A DNA stretch of 64,000 bases from Terriglobia bacterium (GTDB lineage Bacteria > Acidobacteriota > Terriglobia > 20CM-2-55-15): assembly GCA_965218585.1 (NCBI GenBank), contig CBDCLE010000019.1, forward strand, positions 133,603-197,602, written 5' to 3'. The notes below the pieces were generated by a model. The model worked only from the letters and a program-made list of their open reading frames with translations, searched no databases and was not told where the DNA came from. Below are positions 47,779 to 56,632 of this stretch, piece by piece (position 1 is the first letter of the stretch; each line of letters starts with the position of its first letter). A program made the position numbers and the translations under genes.

Positions 47779-47947
47779 CTCAAAGCCCTGGTCGTCAGCG
47801 ACGACACATCAAAGGTGGCTTCACTGATGACGCGAACCGCCATCCGGAGTTCCAACTAGGGGTCACCTCACGAAACGGAAAAAATCGTACGCTGATATGG
47901 ATTGACCCTGTCAAGCTTCCGTTACGTTTCTCGAATGCGCCTCCTTC

Positions 47948-48149
47948 AATGTGCTGGATTCAGGGCGCGGCCGGCATGATTCGCGACGGTGGATCACTCT
48001 GATATTCGTGGGTTGGCTACCACCTGACATCACTTCGTCGCGGAGCTGCCTCGGTCTAAGGACGTGGGTCGGTCTGGCTGAGCCAAGCCTCTCATAGCGT
48101 GCACGAGGATTCTCCTCACCGGCCTGCCACGCCCTGAATCCAACACATT
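47948..48149 (-). ncRNA. Predicted bridge/seek RNA of the IS110 element
   Basis: A 20-bp closing stem encloses two loops closed by CCUCG/CGAGG and CGCGACG/CGUCGCG, carrying segments that match target and donor sequences. Confidence 0.75.
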
Positions 48150-48301
48150 ACGTTTTTTGGGTCCAGCCTTGCTCCGGAAGCGCATGATGGCATTGCGCCC
48201 GGGGAGGCGTCGGAGGAGTTCTCCACACCTTGTCCATGGCACCGCGTGCTTCGAATACACGGCGGAGCAGTGGCAAGGTGTGGAGAACTCCGGCCCATCT
48301 C

Positions 48302-49432
48302 TCAGCTCCGCGCCCGCGTTGCATGGGCTCGGCCCATCACCTCGCAAGCAATCGCCCAGATGAACCCCACCAGCTCGCGGGCCACCGCGGTGGTGACCAC
48401 GCACTTCGCCTTGCCCGCGCTATACAGATGCCGGTACCGCGCACACAGCCGCTTCTGGGCTGCCCAGGCGATGGCCTGCACTGCTGGCGGCGCCGCACTC
48501 GCCTTGCATCTCAAGTGCCTGGTTTTGCGCGCAGGGAACCGGTAGCTCCAGGCCGATTCAACCAGCACGCGGCGCACGTGTCCATTGCCTGTTTTCGTGA
48601 TGGCTCCTTGGCGCCGCCGCGGCCCCGAGGAGTGCTCGCTCGGCACCAGCCCCAGAAAGCTCATCAACTCGCGCGGCGAATCAAAACGCGTCAGGTCCCC
48701 GAGTTCGGCCAGCACCGTCATGGCCGTGACCACATCCACCCCGCGCAACGCGATCAGCGCCTCGACCATCGGACGCAGCGACCACTGCTCCAACACCTCG
48801 CGCATCTGCCCTTCCAGGCCCGCCACGCGGCGGCGCGCCTCCATCACCGTATCGACGTATTCCTGAAACACCACCTGCTGTACCGGATGCTCGAACCGCT
48901 GCTCCTCCAGCCACCGAAAGTGCCGTTGCGTCCACCGGCTCTTGCCTTCCCGATACACTCGATCATGACGCAGCAGAAACGCCCCCAGTCGCTGCCGAGC
49001 CTTGGCCTCGATCGCCTTCATGTCCTCGCGCGCCCGCGTCAGGTCGCGCATCGCCTCCTGCTCCTCGTCGGGCACCCACACCGCCGTCAGCTCCCCCGAC
49101 CGATGCAGCCGCGCCAGCTTCACCGCGTCGCGCCGATCCGTCTTCACTCGCTCCCCCGCGCGCCGCGGGATCAGGCTCGGCGCGACCACCTCGCAATAGT
49201 GGCCGGTGTCGATGATCTCTCGATACACCCCATACCCGCACGGTCCCGCCTCGTAGCAGAAGCTCAACACCTCTGCGTGCGGACTCAGGCTGCGAATGAG
49301 TCGCAGCAGCGATTTGCGTTGATTCTTGATCTCGCCCCGGTACACCGGCGCCTCACGTCCGGGCAGCGCTACCGCCACCGCGATCGTGTCCTTGTGAACG
49401 TCCAGTCCAACGTATGCACTACACTTGTTCAT
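48302..49432 (-). CDS. IS110 DEDD recombinase (376 aa)
   Basis: VGLDVHK, CYEAGP, KTDRRDA (DEDD), GLVPSEHSSG (Tnp-domain Ser), ITKTGN, AVAREL. Confidence 0.95.
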   Translation of the reverse strand: MNKCSAYVGLDVHKDTIAVAVALPGREAPVYRGEIKNQRKSLLRLIRSLSPHAEVLSFCYEAGPCGYGVYREIIDTGHYCEVVAPSLIPRRAGERVKTDRRDAVKLARLHRSGELTAVWVPDEEQEAMRDLTRAREDMKAIEAKARQRLGAFLLRHDRVYREGKSRWTQRHFRWLEEQRFEHPVQQVVFQEYVDTVMEARRRVAGLEGQMREVLEQWSLRPMVEALIALRGVDVVTAMTVLAELGDLTRFDSPRELMSFLGLVPSEHSSGPRRRQGAITKTGNGHVRRVLVESAWSYRFPARKTRHLRCKASAAPPAVQAIAWAAQKRLCARYRHLYSAGKAKCVVTTAVARELVGFIWAIACEVMGRAHATRARS

Positions 49433-49589
49433 GACCTGCCCTCCTCGTTGTGGCTCTGTGTCGAAGGTTCCTCGCCCCGCAACATAACCCACGCGTACGA
49501 GGCCAGGGCAGGTCAATCCATGGTGTCTAAGAGCCATCCGAATGGCCGCTCGTGGCCGACAACAGCCCTTTTCCCCGCATTATCTTGCT

Positions 49590-49712
49590 CTGTCCAGTTG
49601 AGGCATACCCTAGCTTAACGTCAGGGACGGTGCGCTGAAGCGTCAGAATAGAGTTCTAATTTGGATTGATGGACACATCCCGTCCAGGGTTATAGAGTTC
49701 TTCCTGACAGAC
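49590..49712 (+). promoter_or_regulatory. res site of the Tn3-family transposon
   Basis: GTTGAGGCATACCCTA and CGTCAGAATAGAGT resemble Tn21-type res subsites; directly upstream of tnpR. Confidence 0.7.
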
Positions 49713-49730: not shown

Positions 49731-50291
49731 ATGCACGGTCACCGTATCGGCTACGTCCGGGTGAGCAGTTTCGACCAGAACCCGGAACGCCAACTCGAGC
49801 ATGTCCCGGTCGATCGGCTCTTTACCGACAAGGCTTCGGGTAAAGACACGCAGCGTCCGGAACTGGAAAGGTTGCTCGCCTTTGCGCGCGAGGGCGACAC
49901 AGTGGTGGTGCATAGCATGGACCGGCTGGCGCGCAACCTGGACAACCTGCGGCTCATCGTGCAGAAGCTTACCAAGCGCGGCGTGCGCATCGAGTTCGTC
50001 AATGAAAGTCTGACCTTCACCGGTGAGGACTCGCCGCTGGCGAACTTGATGCTGTCGGTCATGGGGGCCTTCGCCGAATTCGAGCGGGCCTTGATCCGCG
50101 AACGTCAACGCGAGGGCATCGCCCTTGCCAAGCAGCGTGGGGCCTATCGGGGCCACAAGAAATCGCTATCGCTGGAGCAGGCGGCCCAGCTACGCCAGCG
50201 GGTGCAGGCTGGAGAGCGGAAGGCCCCCCTGGCCCGCGAGTTTGGCATCAGTCGAGAAACCCTCTATCAATACCTGCGCACAGAAGACTGA
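49731..50291 (+). CDS. tnpR: Tn21-like resolvase
   Basis: [41 protein letters not shown]-terminal HTH; 186 aa. Confidence 0.95.
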
Positions 50292-52838
50292 CGATGCCTC
50301 GCCGCAGTGTGCTGACGCCCGCCGAGCGCACCTCGCTTCTTGCCTTTCCGACCACCAACGATGAGCTGATCCGTCACTATACTTTCTCCGAATTCGACTT
50401 GGCGTCGATCCGGCAACGACGCGGCAATCACAACCGGCTCGGCTTCGCCGTGCAGTTGTGCTACCTGCGCTACCCGGGCTTCGCCCTACCGACTCAAGGC
50501 GAGCCGCCCGCGGCCTTGCTGGCCTTTATCGGACGGCAATTGCACATCGAGTCGGACAGCTGGCCGCAGTACGCAAAGCGTCCGGAAACCCGCCGGGAGC
50601 ACCTAGCAGAATTGCAGGCGTGGCTGAACCTGACGACATTCAGCGCAGCCGATCACCGACGCTTCGTTGAGCCGCTTGTCGGACCGGCTCAACAGACCGA
50701 CCGCGGCATCGTCCTCGCTGAAGCTTTAGTCGAGAGGCTGCGGCGGCAGCGCATCATCCTACCGACACTCGACGTCATCGAGCGCGTTTTGAGCGAAGCG
50801 CTGACGCGCGGGACGCGTGTGGTGTATGAGGCGCTGACCGCCCCTCTCAGCGATCCTCATCGTCGGGCCCTCGATGCGCTGCTGAGCGTGCGAGAAGGCG
50901 GCATGGGAAGTGGACTGGTTTGGCTTCGCCAGCCGCCCGGTCCGCCAAGACCGAAGCACATCCTGGTCCACCTAGAGCGACTAAAGGCTATCCGCGAGCT
51001 TGGATTGCCGGAGGGCTTGGAGCACACCGTCCACCAGAACCGCCTAATGAAACTGGCTCGCGAAGGCGGCCAGATGACCGCCCAGCATCTACGCGACCTA
51101 GAGAGCAAGCGGCGCTACGCCACCCTGACGGCGCTCCTGCTCGACACTCGCGCCACATTGATCGACGAGGTCATCGATCTGCACGACCGCCTCATCGGCA
51201 CGCTGTTCAACCGCGCCAAGCGCCGCCACGCCGATCGCTTCCAACAGTCCGGCAAGGCAATCAATGACAAGGTCCGCCTGTATTCACGCATCGGCCGGGC
51301 CTTGCTGGAGGCCAAGCAAACGGGCGGTGACCCGTTCGCCGCCATCGAGACGATTCTGCCGTGGGAGGTGTTCAGCGAGAGCGTCACCGAAGCGGAGAAG
51401 CTGGCGCAGCCGGAGGACTTCGACTACTTACCGTTGGTCGGCGACAGCTTCAACCAGATCCGGCGCTACACGCCGGCACTGCTGGAGGCGCTCAGCATGA
51501 AGGCTGCGCCGGCGGCAGGCGACGTGATGAGAGCGGTGGAGGTGCTCAAAGACATGAACAAGCGACAAGTGCGCAAAGTACCAGACGACGCGCCGACGTC
51601 CTTCGTTCGCAAGCGCTGGAGAAGTCAGGTGCATACGCTGGACGGTTTGGATCGCCGGTTCTACGAGCTATGCGTGCTCTCGGAACTCAAGAATTCGCTG
51701 CGCTCCGGCGATGTTTGGGTGCAGGGCTCGCGCCAGTTCAAGGACTTCGAGGAGTACCTGTTGCCGCCGTCGCGTTTCTCGGCACAGCGTGAACAGCAAG
51801 CCCTGGGCCTGGCGGTGGAGACCGACTGTGAGCGGTTCTTGGAGGCGCGGCTGGCCGTGCTGGAGCGCGAGCTGCAAACGGTGGAAAGGCTCGCGGCGCA
51901 GGACGAGTTGCCGGATGCGTCCATCATCGGTACGGACCTCAAGCTCACCCCGCTCGACAGCGCTGTGCCGCCGGAAGCCGACGCGCTGACGCGCCGAGCG
52001 TACGGGATGTTGCCCCATTTGAAAATCACCGAGCTGCTCCTGGAAGTGGACGACTGGACCGGCTTTACCCGTCATTTCACGCACCTCAAAAGCGGCAGGA
52101 CGACCGAAGACAAGAGCTTATTGCTGACGGCTGTGCTCGCCGATGCGATCAACCTGGGGTTGACAAAAATGGCGGAATCCTGCCCCGGCTATACCTACGC
52201 CAAACTCTCGTGGTTGCAGTCCTGGCACATCCGAGATGAAACCTATTCGTCCGCGCTGGCCGAGTTGGTCAACGCGCAGTACCGCCAGCCCTTCGCCTTG
52301 TGGTGGGGCGAAGGCGCAACCTCCTCGTCGGACGGCCAAAACTTCAAAGCTGGGGGCCGCGGTCAGTTCGCCGGCCAAATGAATCCAAAGTACGGCTTGG
52401 AACCGGGCGTGCAGTTCTACACCCACGTCTCCGACCAGTACGCGCCCTTCCACACCAAAGTCATCAACGCCACGGTGCGCGACGCGACTCATGTGCTGGA
52501 CGGCCTGCTCTACCACGAGTCCGATCTACGCATCGAAGAGCACTACACTGACACGACCGGCTTCACCAATCATGTGTTCGCACTGATGCATCTGCTGGGC
52601 TTCCGCTTCGCGCCGCGCATCCGTGACCTTGGCGACAAGCGCTTGTATATCCACGGCAACCCGACGCGCTACCCGACGCTCGCTGGGCTGATTGGTGGCA
52701 GCGTCAACGTCAAACGGATCCGCACCCACTGGGATGACATCTTGCGACTCGCAGCGTCGATCCAGCAAGGGACGGTAACGGCCTCGTTGATGCTGCGCAA
52801 GCTCGGCAGTTACCCGCGTCAGAACGGCTTGGCACTAG

Positions 52839-54575
52839 CCCGCATGTTTCACCAGTCCGGCGATCAGGGGGATTTGGGCAGTAAGAATCGGATTCGGGAG
52901 GATCTGGGTTCGAATTGGGCATGTGTGGCGTGACTCGGCGGTGTCGACAAGCGGGAGTTGCTGCGTTTTCGGGTTCAGAAGAGGGTGACGAAACGCACTG
53001 AGACAAACCTCGGCGGAGCCGAAAAGAGCGAGTCGATTTTGGCGCAGGGGATCGGGTCGGTTCTCAGCAGCGCAGAGGAAGCGCCTGCAGGTTTCGATGG
53101 ACGAGGGCAAAGACCTCGGCGTAGGGATAGGCTTCCGACATGGAGATCCAGATGTTGCGAACCGTCAGACGGACTTGAGCTCCGATCTTGAGGAGCTTCA
53201 AGCGGATCGTCTGGCACTGAGCGCGGGCCAGATCGGTATTCTTCAGTCCCAGACGGCGTAACGCGTGCAGGAGCATGTAGGCGGCCGAGGACAGATAGAG
53301 CCGGAGTTGATTGGCGCGCATGGTTGCCGCGCTGGTCCGGTCGGCGAATAGATCCAACTGCTGTTCCTTGATGCGATTTTCCATGTCGCCCCGCGCACAG
53401 TAAAAGTCTTCATAGAGGGCGCGGGCGTCCAGGCGTTCCGGCGACAGTGAGGTCACAACGAATCGAGGATTGGCGCCTTTCTCCAGGAACTCGGCCTTGC
53501 CGATGACGCGTCGGGTGCAGGTCCAGCTCTTCCGAGTGCGATACCGGAAATCGTTAAACACCCGCGCCGGTTTCCCGGTGTCGTTAAACTCGGCTTCGGC
53601 CTGACTCATCGATTCAGCGATCTCGCGCTTGAGCCGATCGTTCTTGGCCAGACCCACCACGTAATCGACCTGGTGGGCCTCGCACCAACTCAGCAATTCA
53701 TCCCGGCAAAAGCCCGAGTCGGCCCGGATGATAATCGACACCTCCGGCCAGCTCTGCCGGATCTGGCCGATGATGCGGTTCAATTCCTCGACGGCGCCGT
53801 CCGCACCGTCGACATTGGAGCACCGCAACCGGGCGCATAGCAGATGCTCTCCCGAAAAGATGTAGAGCGGCAGATAACAGTAGTTGCCGTAGTAGCCGTG
53901 AAAGAACCGTCCTTCCTGATGGCCATGGATCGGATCATCGGTCGCATCCAGGTCCAGAACAATCTCCTCGGGCGCCGATCCGTGAGCCGCCACAAATGCA
54001 TCCACCATCCAGCGGTCGATCTTGTCCGGGTCCATGGCAATCTTCTTGTACCGCTCCTTCCCATCGACTTGCTCCCCGGTCAGTTCCAACCGGTTCAGCG
54101 TACACTTGCCCGCCAACGCTTTTCCCCGGTCTCGGGCCTGCCGCCGCTTCTCCCCCAGTGGATCGGCCTTATCCACCGCCACGGCCAGCATCGGATCGGT
54201 CCGCAGTTGGTCATGATCGTTCAGATCCTCGTAGCCCAGACAGAGTCCGTAGACGCGCTGCCCCAATAACTCGCTCACCGTGTGTTCGATCAACCTCGCG
54301 TCCCGGTAATCCCTGAAACACTCGGCCAGTCCGGCGATCAGACCCGTTCGCTTTTCCACTTCCCTCAACAGCAGAACCCCAGCGTCGGAGGTGATCTTTC
54401 CGCCGTCAAAACGCGCCTTCACTTTTCGTTGAAGAAGTCCGTGAAATTCGAACGTCGTTTGGTTACACTCTGTTCTCATAAGGGCCGTCTCCGTTTGGCT
54501 TGTTAAACGTTTATTTCAAAACGCTTTATGCCAGACAGGGCGGCCTTTTCTGGTCCTATCGGTGAAATATGCGGG
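52839..54575 (-). mobile_element. Complete IS1380-family element with CTAG duplication
   Basis: IRs CCCGCATGTTTCACC and (rc) CCCGCATATTTCACC; CTAG at 52835 and 54576. Confidence 0.92.
53064..54479 (-). CDS. IS1380-family transposase
   Basis: FDGGKITSDAG, GYEDLNDH, LDLDATDD, RADSGF, YCARGDMENRIKE. Confidence 0.95.
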   Translation of the reverse strand: MRTECNQTTFEFHGLLQRKVKARFDGGKITSDAGVLLLREVEKRTGLIAGLAECFRDYRDARLIEHTVSELLGQRVYGLCLGYEDLNDHDQLRTDPMLAVAVDKADPLGEKRRQARDRGKALAGKCTLNRLELTGEQVDGKERYKKIAMDPDKIDRWMVDAFVAAHGSAPEEIVLDLDATDDPIHGHQEGRFFHGYYGNYCYLPLYIFSGEHLLCARLRCSNVDGADGAVEELNRIIGQIRQSWPEVSIIIRADSGFCRDELLSWCEAHQVDYVVGLAKNDRLKREIAESMSQAEAEFNDTGKPARVFNDFRYRTRKSWTCTRRVIGKAEFLEKGANPRFVVTSLSPERLDARALYEDFYCARGDMENRIKEQQLDLFADRTSAATMRANQLRLYLSSAAYMLLHALRRLGLKNTDLARAQCQTIRLKLLKIGAQVRLTVRNIWISMSEAYPYAEVFALVHRNLQALPLRC

Positions 54576-54998
54576 CTAGCGCTGCGCGAACTCGGCCGCA
54601 TCGAGCGCACCCTGTTCACGCTCGACTGGCTGCAAAACATCGAGTTGCACCGCCGGGTACAGATCGGTTTGAACAAGGGCGAGGCCAAGAATGCGCTGGC
54701 CCGCGCCGTGTTCTTCAACCAGTTGGGTGAACTGCGCGACCGCAACTTCGAGAACCAGCGCTACCGTGCCAGCGGACTCAACCTGGTGGTCGCCGCCATC
54801 GTGCTCTGGAACACGGCTTACCTGGAACGGGTGGTGCAAGCGTTGCGGGACGCCGGAAACGCGGACGACAGCCTGCTGCCTCATCTGTCGCCACTGGGCT
54901 GGGAGCACATCAACCTGACGGGAAACTACAGCTGGCAGCAGAACAAGCAAGTCGAACAGGGTAACTTCCGGCCCTTACCGTCGCTCAATCAGCCTTAG

Positions 54999-55355
54999 AC
55001 ACCATGGATTGACCTGCCCTGGCCTCGTACGCGTGGGTTATGTTGCGGGGCGAGGAACCTTCGACACAGAGCCACAACGAGGAGGGCAGGTCATGAACAA
55101 GTGTAGTGCATACGTTGGACTGGACGTTCACAAGGACACGATCGCGGTGGCGGTAGCGCTGCCCGGACGTGAGGCGCCGGTGTACCGGGGCGAGATCAAG
55201 AATCAACGCAAATCGCTGCTGCGACTCATTCGCAGCCTGAGTCCGCACGCAGAGGTGTTGAGCTTCTGCTACGAGGCGGGACCGTGCGGGTATGGGGTGT
55301 ATCGAGAGATCATCGACACCGGCCACTATTGCGAGGTGGTCGCGCCGAGCCTGAT
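54999..55355 (+). mobile_element. Second IS110 copy (left end plus 5' of the recombinase gene), truncated by IS256
   Basis: Appears identical to the reverse complement of ~49170-49526; begins right after CTTAG at the tnpA stop. Confidence 0.9.
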
Positions 55356-55390: not shown

Positions 55391-56632
55391 TCATAAGTCC
55401 TCCTCAAAGCGGGATTGGAACATGGCGTTGAGCTGATGAAGAGCGGAATGGATGGAAGTGGCCGGAGATTTCCAACGGCCGTTGTGGAGGTGAGAGACGG
55501 CCAAGCCGAGTTTGAACTTGAGGGTGTCTTCGGAGTGAAAGTAGCCGCCCGAATTGCGGCGCATAATTTCCAGTTGTCCGTTGACGGCCTCGACGAGGTT
55601 GGTGGTGGAAAACGATTTGCGCATGAGGTCGGGATACTTGAGGAAGGCGAGATAGTGAGTCCGTTTCTTGCGGAGCCCCGCGATCCAGGAGGGATAGTGC
55701 TGGGCGAAGCGGTCACAGAGTTCCTCGAACCCTTGGTTGCCGACATCCTCACACCAGGAGGACTTGATGGCACGGAAGCGTTGCTGAAACTCGGCGGCGT
55801 CGGATTTGGAGAGATGGCTCTTAGCATTGCGCTGCATGTGGACGGTACAGAGCTGGATATCAGCATTGGGAAAGAAGCCTTCGCTGACCTTGAGAAGGCC
55901 GGAGAAATCGTCCTGGACGAAGATCATGACGCGTCGGAGACCGCGCTCGATCAGAGAGCGGAGAACCCCCTTCCAGTCTTCGAGATTCTCGCGGCCGGGT
56001 TTGGCAATGCAGGCCAGGACACGCTTCTTGCCGTCGCGGCCTAGACCCACCACCAGGTAGATACAGGCCGGACGCAGCCGGTCGCCGTCGCGGAGTTCGA
56101 CGTACTTGCCATCCACGAATAGGGCCAGCAGATCCGTGTCCAGTGGCCGGCTGTTGCCAAGATCGAGTTCTTCGATCAGGCCCGACGCCACCCGTTCCAG
56201 ATCCTGTTGGGACCCGGACAGGCCCATCTTCTGAAGCGCCTCCCGGGCCGCATTGACCGAACGGGATGAGGCCAGCAGTCCCAGCAAGATGGACTCGACT
56301 TCTTCAGGGTAGCCGCGCTGATACGGGGATGGTAGGTTCGCGGGACGGAAATCCCCGTTACGGGTTCGAGGGACACGGATATCGATCGGAACGCTGCCCA
56401 CTTGGAGGGAGCGATCGTAAAAACCATTGGGACGGTCGTCGGGGCGGTGTTCAAGATGCAGGTCCCGTTCGGCCACACTGAGGCCCGACAACAGGGTCCC
56501 CAGTACCTCGCGCAGGCTCAGATCGGCCAGCCCGGAGGCCAGCAGGGTCTGGATCTGTGTTTTTGTGGATTCAGAAATCTGTTCTGATGGTACGCTTTCA
56601 TTCGGATCTGTAGACATTGGGTTCAACTCCAT
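55391..56632 (-). CDS. IS256-family transposase
   Basis: NGFYDR, VPRTR, FVDG, VQDD, QLCTVH, STTNLVE. Confidence 0.9.
   Translation of the reverse strand: MELNPMSTDPNESVPSEQISESTKTQIQTLLASGLADLSLREVLGTLLSGLSVAERDLHLEHRPDDRPNGFYDRSLQVGSVPIDIRVPRTRNGDFRPANLPSPYQRGYPEEVESILLGLLASSRSVNAAREALQKMGLSGSQQDLERVASGLIEELDLGNSRPLDTDLLALFVDGKYVELRDGDRLRPACIYLVVGLGRDGKKRVLACIAKPGRENLEDWKGVLRSLIERGLRRVMIFVQDDFSGLLKVSEGFFPNADIQLCTVHMQRNAKSHLSKSDAAEFQQRFRAIKSSWCEDVGNQGFEELCDRFAQHYPSWIAGLRKKRTHYLAFLKYPDLMRKSFSTTNLVEAVNGQLEIMRRNSGGYFHSEDTLKFKLGLAVSHLHNGRWKSPATSIHSALHQLNAMFQSRFEEDL

Follow-up and report, generated by a model that had tools for sequence, protein, structure and literature searches.

How does an insertion sequence come to lie in both terminal inverted repeats of one transposon, at the same nucleotide of each? 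This question is raised by a Tn3 family transposon in the 64,000-nt stretch of DNA analysed here (the window). Both IS1111 and IS110 elements were shown in 2024 to choose their sites by RNA guidance (PMC11187229, PMC11208160), and the published name for the guide RNAs of IS1111-type elements is seekRNA (PMC11187229). A first-pass annotation of the window proposed that an RNA of this kind directs the element to the inner end of Tn3 family inverted repeats. The results described below indicate that positions 47894–49526 are very probably an autonomous IS1111-type insertion sequence whose 3′ non-coding end encodes, on the minus strand, a bispecific guide RNA addressed to transposon ends.

The insertion sequence and the transposon it invaded

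The ends of the insertion sequence were fixed by five full copies in the host genome, which are 99.6–100% identical and have different flanks, and by four partial pieces. Its features are as follows.

47894..49526, minus strand: complete IS1111-type insertion sequence, 1633 bp, the core dinucleotide being counted with the flanks (ends from genome copies)
49526-49522, minus strand: left terminal extension ACACC, 5 nt (plus the 2-nt core), preceding ATGGATTGACC
49511..49521, minus strand: left subterminal inverted repeat ATGGATTGACC, 11 bp (sequence)
48302..49432, minus strand: transposase gene, 376 aa plus stop (Pfam, NCBIfam)
47914-47909, minus strand: TTGACA facing outward near the right end, kept in most relatives (alignment tail)
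47897..47907, minus strand: right subterminal inverted repeat GGTCAATCCAT, 11 bp (sequence)
47896-47894, minus strand: right terminal extension ATC, 3 nt, after GGTCAATCCAT

The transposase matches the Pfam models DEDD_Tnp_IS110 (3.9e-16) and Transposase_20 (1.9e-20; the PF02371 C-terminal domain), and scores 266 bits against NCBIfam NF033542, "IS110 family RNA-guided transposase", where the cut-off is 140. Its matches in the PDB are weak and are to the ISCro4 and IS621 transposases, that to IS621 (E 4.7e-07) covering the C-terminal region only. Alignment to ISCro4 places candidate DEDD residues at D11, E61, D99 and D102. Residues 261–270, GLVPSEHSSG, form the GLxPxxxxS/T-G motif described for IS1111 elements (PMC11187229). 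The proteins of relatives align to the transposase from residue 1, and the subfamily aligns over 362–376 residues.

IS1111 elements are described as having subterminal repeats of about 11–13 bp, extensions of 7 nt on the left and 3 nt on the right, and a long downstream non-coding region (PMC11187229). The window element combines the DEDD domain and C-terminal motif with subterminal repeats, asymmetric extensions and a long downstream non-coding region, 411 nt lying downstream of the transposase gene and 94 nt upstream. The 376-aa protein falls outside the 330–350 aa given for IS1111 family transposases, which is a descriptive range and not a strict one (PMC11187229). These results support assignment of the element to the IS1111 type within the IS110 family, with a guide RNA in its 3′ non-coding end.

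Two further features of the element were observed. A 411-aa open reading frame (49537–48302, minus strand) begins outside the insertion sequence, in transposon DNA, and enters the transposase gene in frame, so that read-through could give a fusion protein. Between the transposase stop codon and the guide RNA lies a near-perfect 79-nt hairpin (48214–48292, minus strand). Among relatives it is found only in the closest full-length one, and a 57-nt piece of it also occurs elsewhere in the host genome (G000 C1:48163–48219).

The invaded transposon consists of the following parts.

47859..47893, plus strand: left 38-nt inverted repeat, outer 35 nt, GGGG...ACGCT (sequence)
49529-49531, plus strand: left inverted repeat, inner AAG, following the duplicated CT core at 49527-49528
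49731-50291, plus strand: tnpR (Pfam)
50294 to 54998, plus strand: tnpA, interrupted (Pfam)
54999..55355, plus strand: second copy of the insertion sequence, first 357 nt only, at the same position of the right inverted repeat (genome copies)

On the plus strand the junctions of the window copy read ...GTACG-CT, insertion sequence, CT-AAGAG..., and the joined ends of the element would read TGGTGT-CT-GATAT. When checked on the sequence, both the target junction (GTACG-CT-AAG) and the circle junction were as first annotated. Insertion falls at repeat nucleotide 35|36, so that the outer 35 nt of the repeat remain in one piece at the tip of the transposon. At the other end, the left flank of the second copy is CCTTAG (54993–54998). 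The tnpA stop codon, TAG (54996–54998), lies inside the right repeat and supplies the recombination core with its AG, so that neither the tnpA frame nor the stop is disrupted by insertion. The second copy is cut off by an IS256 family (Mutator) element (55391–56632). Its missing part, together with the outer repeat, is found on contig C10:133836–135126 with an 11-nt overlap, and this split across contigs points to a later rearrangement. The tnpA gene is itself split by an IS1380-like element (about 52835–54575) that encodes a 471-aa transposase (54479–53064, minus strand; Pfam DDE_Tnp_1_4, 8.4e-158). A 32-aa stretch read through the end of the IS1380-like element is found repeatedly, at more than 30 locations across the genome.

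Structure and covariation of the predicted guide RNA

The predicted guide RNA lies in the 411-nt non-coding region and is organized as follows.

47948..48149, minus strand: structured guide RNA (seekRNA / bridge RNA), 202 nt (fold and covariation)
48149-48126 with 47971-47948, minus strand: closing stem, 24 bp (helix 1)
48042..48115, minus strand: target-binding module, in which stems GGAG/CUCC and CCUC/GAGG enclose guides 1 and 2 (covariation)
48102-48095, minus strand: guide 1, GCACGCUA, complementary to the right flank plus core
48061-48056, minus strand: guide 2, CCUUAG, identical to the left flank plus core
47983..48041, minus strand: putative donor-binding module with stem GCGACG/CGUCGC (fold, covariation)
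48032-48026, minus strand: donor segment UGAUGUC, 6/7 to the left end
48005-47999, minus strand: donor segment AUAUCAG, 7/7 to the right end plus core

The minimum free energy fold of the 411-nt region contains the closing stem (−187.1 kcal/mol, z = −6.25), and 0/100 shuffles were as good. The core of this stem is 20 bp long (48149–48130 with 47967–47948) and has one U-G pair; extension to 24 bp adds a second. On the plus strand these two U-G pairs would turn into C-A mismatches, an argument for the minus strand. The first-pass annotation had described the 20-bp stem with a G-U pair possible on the minus strand only, which holds for the longer stem as well, and all of its segment coordinates are correct on minus-strand read-out. 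Compared with the window copy's own junctions, guide 1 matches at 7/8 positions, guide 2 at 5/6, UGAUGUC at 6/7 and AUAUCAG at 7/7. The second loop was thus correctly annotated at both segments and the first loop at guide 1, but guide 2 had been matched to CTAAGG; the actual flank is CTAAGA, hence 5/6. The segment complementary to the top strand is 5′ of the other guide segment, which is also the order in published IS1111 seekRNAs (PMC11187229).

Four short matches could arise by chance. When the 154 nt between the stem arms were shuffled, 0/200,000 shuffles kept all four segment matches in order. Among the other 154-nt windows of the 64 kb (5,108 scanned, both strands), only two that overlap the real site passed. 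A search of Rfam with a threshold of E ≤ 1 returned no family for the guide RNA, only four chance-level microRNA or sRNA matches (E 0.4–0.98).

Covariation was examined among relatives of the element. Genome contigs yielded 525 confirmed relatives; the analysis used the best 80 of these, with 59–98% protein identity. Both ends of the insertion sequence were recognized by pattern in 58/81 sources (80 loci plus the window copy), the other 23 having no recognizable end. The layout of these 58 is constant: flank...TAG, ACATN, ATG-repeat, body, repeat-CAT, ATC, AG...flank. The core is AG in gene orientation, corresponding to CT on the plus strand of the window. The non-coding regions, 51 of them unique, align well across 47948–48149. 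The structure alignment comprised 50 of the 51, L083 being excluded on account of a long insertion.

In the structure predicted by RNAalifold for the 50 RNAs, the long stem closes the RNA, the first loop is framed by two short stems and the second by one, and 27 of the 43 pairs show compensatory changes. Paired cells amounted to 92.7%, compared with 78.0% in shuffled alignments (0/500) and 38–48% when partners were slid by 1–3 columns, and the covariation score was 0.441 compared with 0.180 for shuffled. In the closing stem, both sides vary across the 50 relatives in 23/24 pairs.

Nine columns aligned with UGCACGCUA and seven aligned with UCCUUAG were then compared with each element's own flanks in 48 elements (38 unique guide pairs; five other elements were left out for short flanks and another five because there were two candidates for the right end). 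Guide 1 and the reverse-complemented right flank agree at 163/228 non-core positions (permuted mean 69.0, sd 7.4, max 97; 0/20,000). Guide 2 agrees with the left flank at 124/190 positions (permuted mean 74.2, sd 5.3, max 98; 0/20,000). These statistics use one flank pair per relative, and relatives are not independent of one another. Match rates drop about five nt to the right and three nt to the left of the core, suggesting that about 9–11 bp are read. Both segments of loop 1 change in step with each element's insertion site. The comparison of orthologous ends with their flanks, which the first-pass annotation had named as a check, thus gave stems that co-vary and loop-1 segments that follow the flanks.

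No other part of the RNA is as conserved as the donor module, which has many invariant columns. AUAUCAG is replaced by AUACCAG exactly in the clade whose right end reads ...ATACC, which amounts to one evolutionary event. The UGAUGUC segment differs from the left end at one position, as it does in nearly all relatives, and the two co-vary inconsistently. UGAUGUC fits the family consensus left end perfectly; it is the window element's own left end that has changed, to ACACC from ACATC.

Small parts of the element are present in four metatranscriptome runs from one study; the lack of coverage elsewhere is uninformative. Two contigs lie wholly inside the RNA region, one of 183 nt (47940–48121) and one of 161 nt (47972–48132), with 1–2 differences. 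Further contigs fall in the transposase gene, on repeat copies that are not interrupted, and on one more occupied site that resembles an inverted repeat. These are assembled contigs at a depth of 2.5–4 that carry neither strand nor end information and may include DNA carry-over, so they are a weak hint of RNA only. A promoter scan of 47800–49650 gave 0 sigma-70-like promoters. If the right end were joined to the left end, the outward-facing TTGACA would face CACCAT, a poor −10, at a spacing of 18 nt.

By homology with ISEc11, ISPa11, ISKpn4 and IS621, the transposase would excise the element as a circle in which the right end, core and left end are joined. AUAUCAG and UGAUGUC, in the second module, would hold the circle junction, and the target would be held by the first module. 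Strand exchange at the CT core by a tetramer would follow, and insertion would occur with no duplication beyond the shared core.

Two other schemes were weighed against this reading. The protein alone might choose the site, with the four matches being coincidence or relics of end duplication. This can hardly be reconciled with the covariation between guides and flanks (0/20,000), the covariation of the structure and the chance test (0/200,000), and in related elements the RNA is required (PMC11187229); we regard it as extremely improbable. Alternatively, only the first module may work, as a short seekRNA of about 75–100 nt, with the protein recognizing the element's ends through the subterminal repeats. 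The predominant RNAs of ISEc11, ISPa11 and ISKpn4 are indeed 82–96 nt (PMC11187229), the UGAUGUC segment is always imperfect with inconsistent covariation at the left end, and donor covariation rests on one clade since the ends are so conserved. However, conservation within the RNA is highest in the donor module, with its many invariant columns, AUAUCAG matches the right end plus core at 7/7 and becomes AUACCAG exactly in the ATACC clade, and longer RNAs of about 150 nt also co-purify with the ISEc11 transposase (PMC11187229). A single working module is quite unlikely.

Insertion sites in the host genome

Eight copies of the RNA in the host genome are identical over 47948–48149 and represent eight insertion events. 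The genomic copies of the non-coding region differ only in the 48214–48292 hairpin or at 47915, never within the guide RNA. All eight events are at ACGCT|AA(G). The sites read GTACGCT|AAGA, GTACGCT|AAGG, CTACGCT|AAGG, GCACGCT|AAGG, GCACGCT|AAAT, ACACGCT|AATC and, in two cases whose left flank is lost, CTACGCT|. The guides spell GCACG-CT-AAGG as the ideal target, a sequence that forms the inner tip of the terminal inverted repeats of Tn3/Tn21-type transposons. In Tn3 family repeats the conserved ends are GGGG and the final TAAG (PMC5736529).

Five of the eight events are in canonical 38-nt inverted repeats, GGGG...ACGCTAAG, of at least two sequence types. Two of these are the left and right repeats of the Tn3 family transposon in the window, and the other three, one on contig C4 and two on C9, are in a second repeat type. 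A sixth event (C10a) matches the guides at 11/11 and lies in a repeated sequence that resembles an inverted repeat and is not a canonical GGGG repeat. The flanking sequence of the remaining two (C16 and C4a) has no other copy in the genome. A search of 34 further genomes from the host's family, not all of them complete, found the guide-RNA non-coding region in none.

Two partial copies of the insertion sequence lie head to head on contig C9 (G000 C9:158687–160416, meeting at 159254), each ending in an outward-facing 35-nt repeat end. The arrangement suggests that a small element had both of its repeats invaded and then lost its interior; otherwise it is an assembly artefact. IS110 family genes are abundant in the host genome, which has 30 matches to NF033542; one element with at least 17 near-identical copies lies just under the cut-off, and there are at least two further types.

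Only two copies of the invaded repeat types are unoccupied, and both are mutated in the core. The copy at G000 C1:43511–43540 reads ACTTT in place of ACGCT, with core TT plus an adjacent G-to-T change, and that at C4:153976–154015 reads ACGAT, with core AT. Free ACGCTAAG sites number 35 in the genome, compared with 128 expected from base composition. Free sites with an intact CT core number 0 at 11/11, 22 at 10/11 and 341 at 9/11. Among the sites actually used, three match the guides at only 9/11 and one at 8/11. The earlier proposal that the RNA directs the element to the inner end of Tn3 family repeats is supported by the covariation and by the eight events, five of them in canonical repeats. 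Since two events (C16 and C4a) lie in sequence without a second genomic copy and 35 free ACGCTAAG sites remain, the guides alone do not account for the preference for repeats. Either insertions elsewhere have been lost or something besides the guides favours repeats.

The first of these possibilities can be spelled out. The guides would pick a short motif, ACGCTAA plus a few bases, wherever it occurs, insertions in genes would be purged, and the enrichment in repeats would be survivorship in safe harbours that are neutral, multi-copy and mobile. Nothing beyond base pairing would recognize the repeat. This refines the best explanation and keeps RNA guidance. It is in keeping with C16 and C4a, which have no second genomic copy, with C10a, which is in a repeated, non-canonical sequence, and with the per-position match rates, by which only about 9–11 bp are read; the same argument has been made for IS5075 (PMC8269217). 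Against it, every intact site of the repeat type that was found is occupied, whereas the 35 free ACGCTAAG sites and three free ACGCTAAGG sites with one distal mismatch remain. Taken together, survivorship has close to an even chance of being correct, though somewhat less than that.

A different reading is that the element is not merely a user of safe harbours but a dedicated rider of Tn3 family transposons, with an insertion point that keeps the invaded transposon mobile. With the outer 35 nt contiguous and the tnpA stop intact, the doubly invaded transposon could still be mobilized by its transposase and carry the insertion sequence with it. If this were true, repeats would escape only through mutation of the CT core, as in the two unoccupied copies. 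We consider dedicated riding rather doubtful.

Relation to known elements and meaning of the address

The founding paper on IS4321 and IS5075 is reportedly that of Partridge and Hall (2003). Both elements target the repeats of the Tn21 family (PMC8269217), and they are the closest known parallel in target. Like the window element they are of the IS1111 type, with a DEDD transposase, subterminal repeats and a downstream non-coding region (PMC8269217, PMC11187229). They also insert in one orientation into 38-nt Tn3/Tn21-type repeats, with occasional look-alike sites elsewhere (PMC8269217, PMC11187229). In contrast, their transposases have about 25% identity to the window transposase over about 61% of its length. 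The IS5075 gene in the plasmid locus L016 is 1005 nt long, whereas the window element is 1633 bp with a 376-aa protein. In L016 the IS5075 insertion lies some 22 nt into the repeat, counted from the outer end (about 22|23), and that of the window element at nucleotide 35|36. With neither a close transposase nor the same insertion point, the window element falls outside the IS4321/IS5075 group.

The L016 repeat, which is occupied by IS5075, contains GCACGCTAAG. Guide 1 matches it fully and guide 2 at 5/6, which bears out the match to the Tn21 inverted repeat that the first-pass annotation had stated. Given that guide 1 matches the Tn21-type repeat exactly, the element may also be able to insert into that widespread class of transposons.

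The elements with characterized guide RNAs resemble the window element in other respects. In ISEc11, ISPa11, ISKpn4 and ISPst6 (Siddiquee et al. 2024, PMC11187229) the seekRNA likewise derives from the 3′ non-coding region, and terminal extensions of 7 nt on the left, the core counted, and 3 nt on the right are common to the elements of that paper and the window element (PMC11187229). Their targets differ, and the window protein is longer than the 330–350 aa given for IS1111 family transposases; the likeness is drawn from their published description (PMC11187229). The IS621 bridge RNA likewise has a target loop and a donor loop, with left and right guides that include the core, and a CT core (Durrant et al. 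2024, PMC11208160). Unlike the window RNA, it has its place in the left end, upstream of the gene, and the subterminal repeats of IS621 are only 2–3 bp (PMC11208160). Right-end bridge RNAs have been predicted for 93.0% of IS1111 elements, including ISAzs32 of Azospirillum (PMC11208160).

The best plasmid relative of the transposase has 66% identity (Marinobacter), and the nearest named families are ISSfr2 (54%) and ISSso6 (47%). Megablast of the whole insertion sequence against the plasmid collection gave no match at about 85% identity or more. No insertion sequence that cuts at ACGCT|AAG is reported in the literature covered by a limited search; the subfamily or its predicted RNA may already be listed in the supplementary tables and figures of PMC11187229 and PMC11208160.

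One relative appears to share the address. Five loci in one Paracoccaceae MAG (L030, L033, L035, L038 and L041; 70% identity) have the guides AUCACGCU(C/A) and AUCUUAG. In two of the five (L033 and L038) the flanks resemble GGGG...ACGCTAAG transposon ends, about 38 nt long in one case and about 46 nt in the other. In a FastTree phylogeny of 45 transposases, computed without support values and without L081 and L088, which have internal stops, this relative is not sister to the window element. There is a hint that the guide with a CACGCU core arose in two non-sister lineages, the window element and L030–L041, and this in turn hints at repeated selection for the address.

The seekRNA/bridge-RNA mechanism, RNA-guided IS1111 elements and insertion sequences aimed at Tn21 family repeats were all known. 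The novelty lies in where the RNA is addressed, in the independence of the lineage and in a clean natural record, not in the mechanism. The window element adds a second, unrelated natural RNA-guided insertion sequence aimed at Tn3/Tn21-type end repeats, at a different nucleotide. Its record within the genome is unusually complete, comprising one RNA, eight events, both ends of a transposon, and escape-like core mutations in the free copies. Together with about 50 relatives, whose 38 guide pairs have matching flanks, it provides a natural reprogramming series for the guide RNAs of IS1111-type elements.
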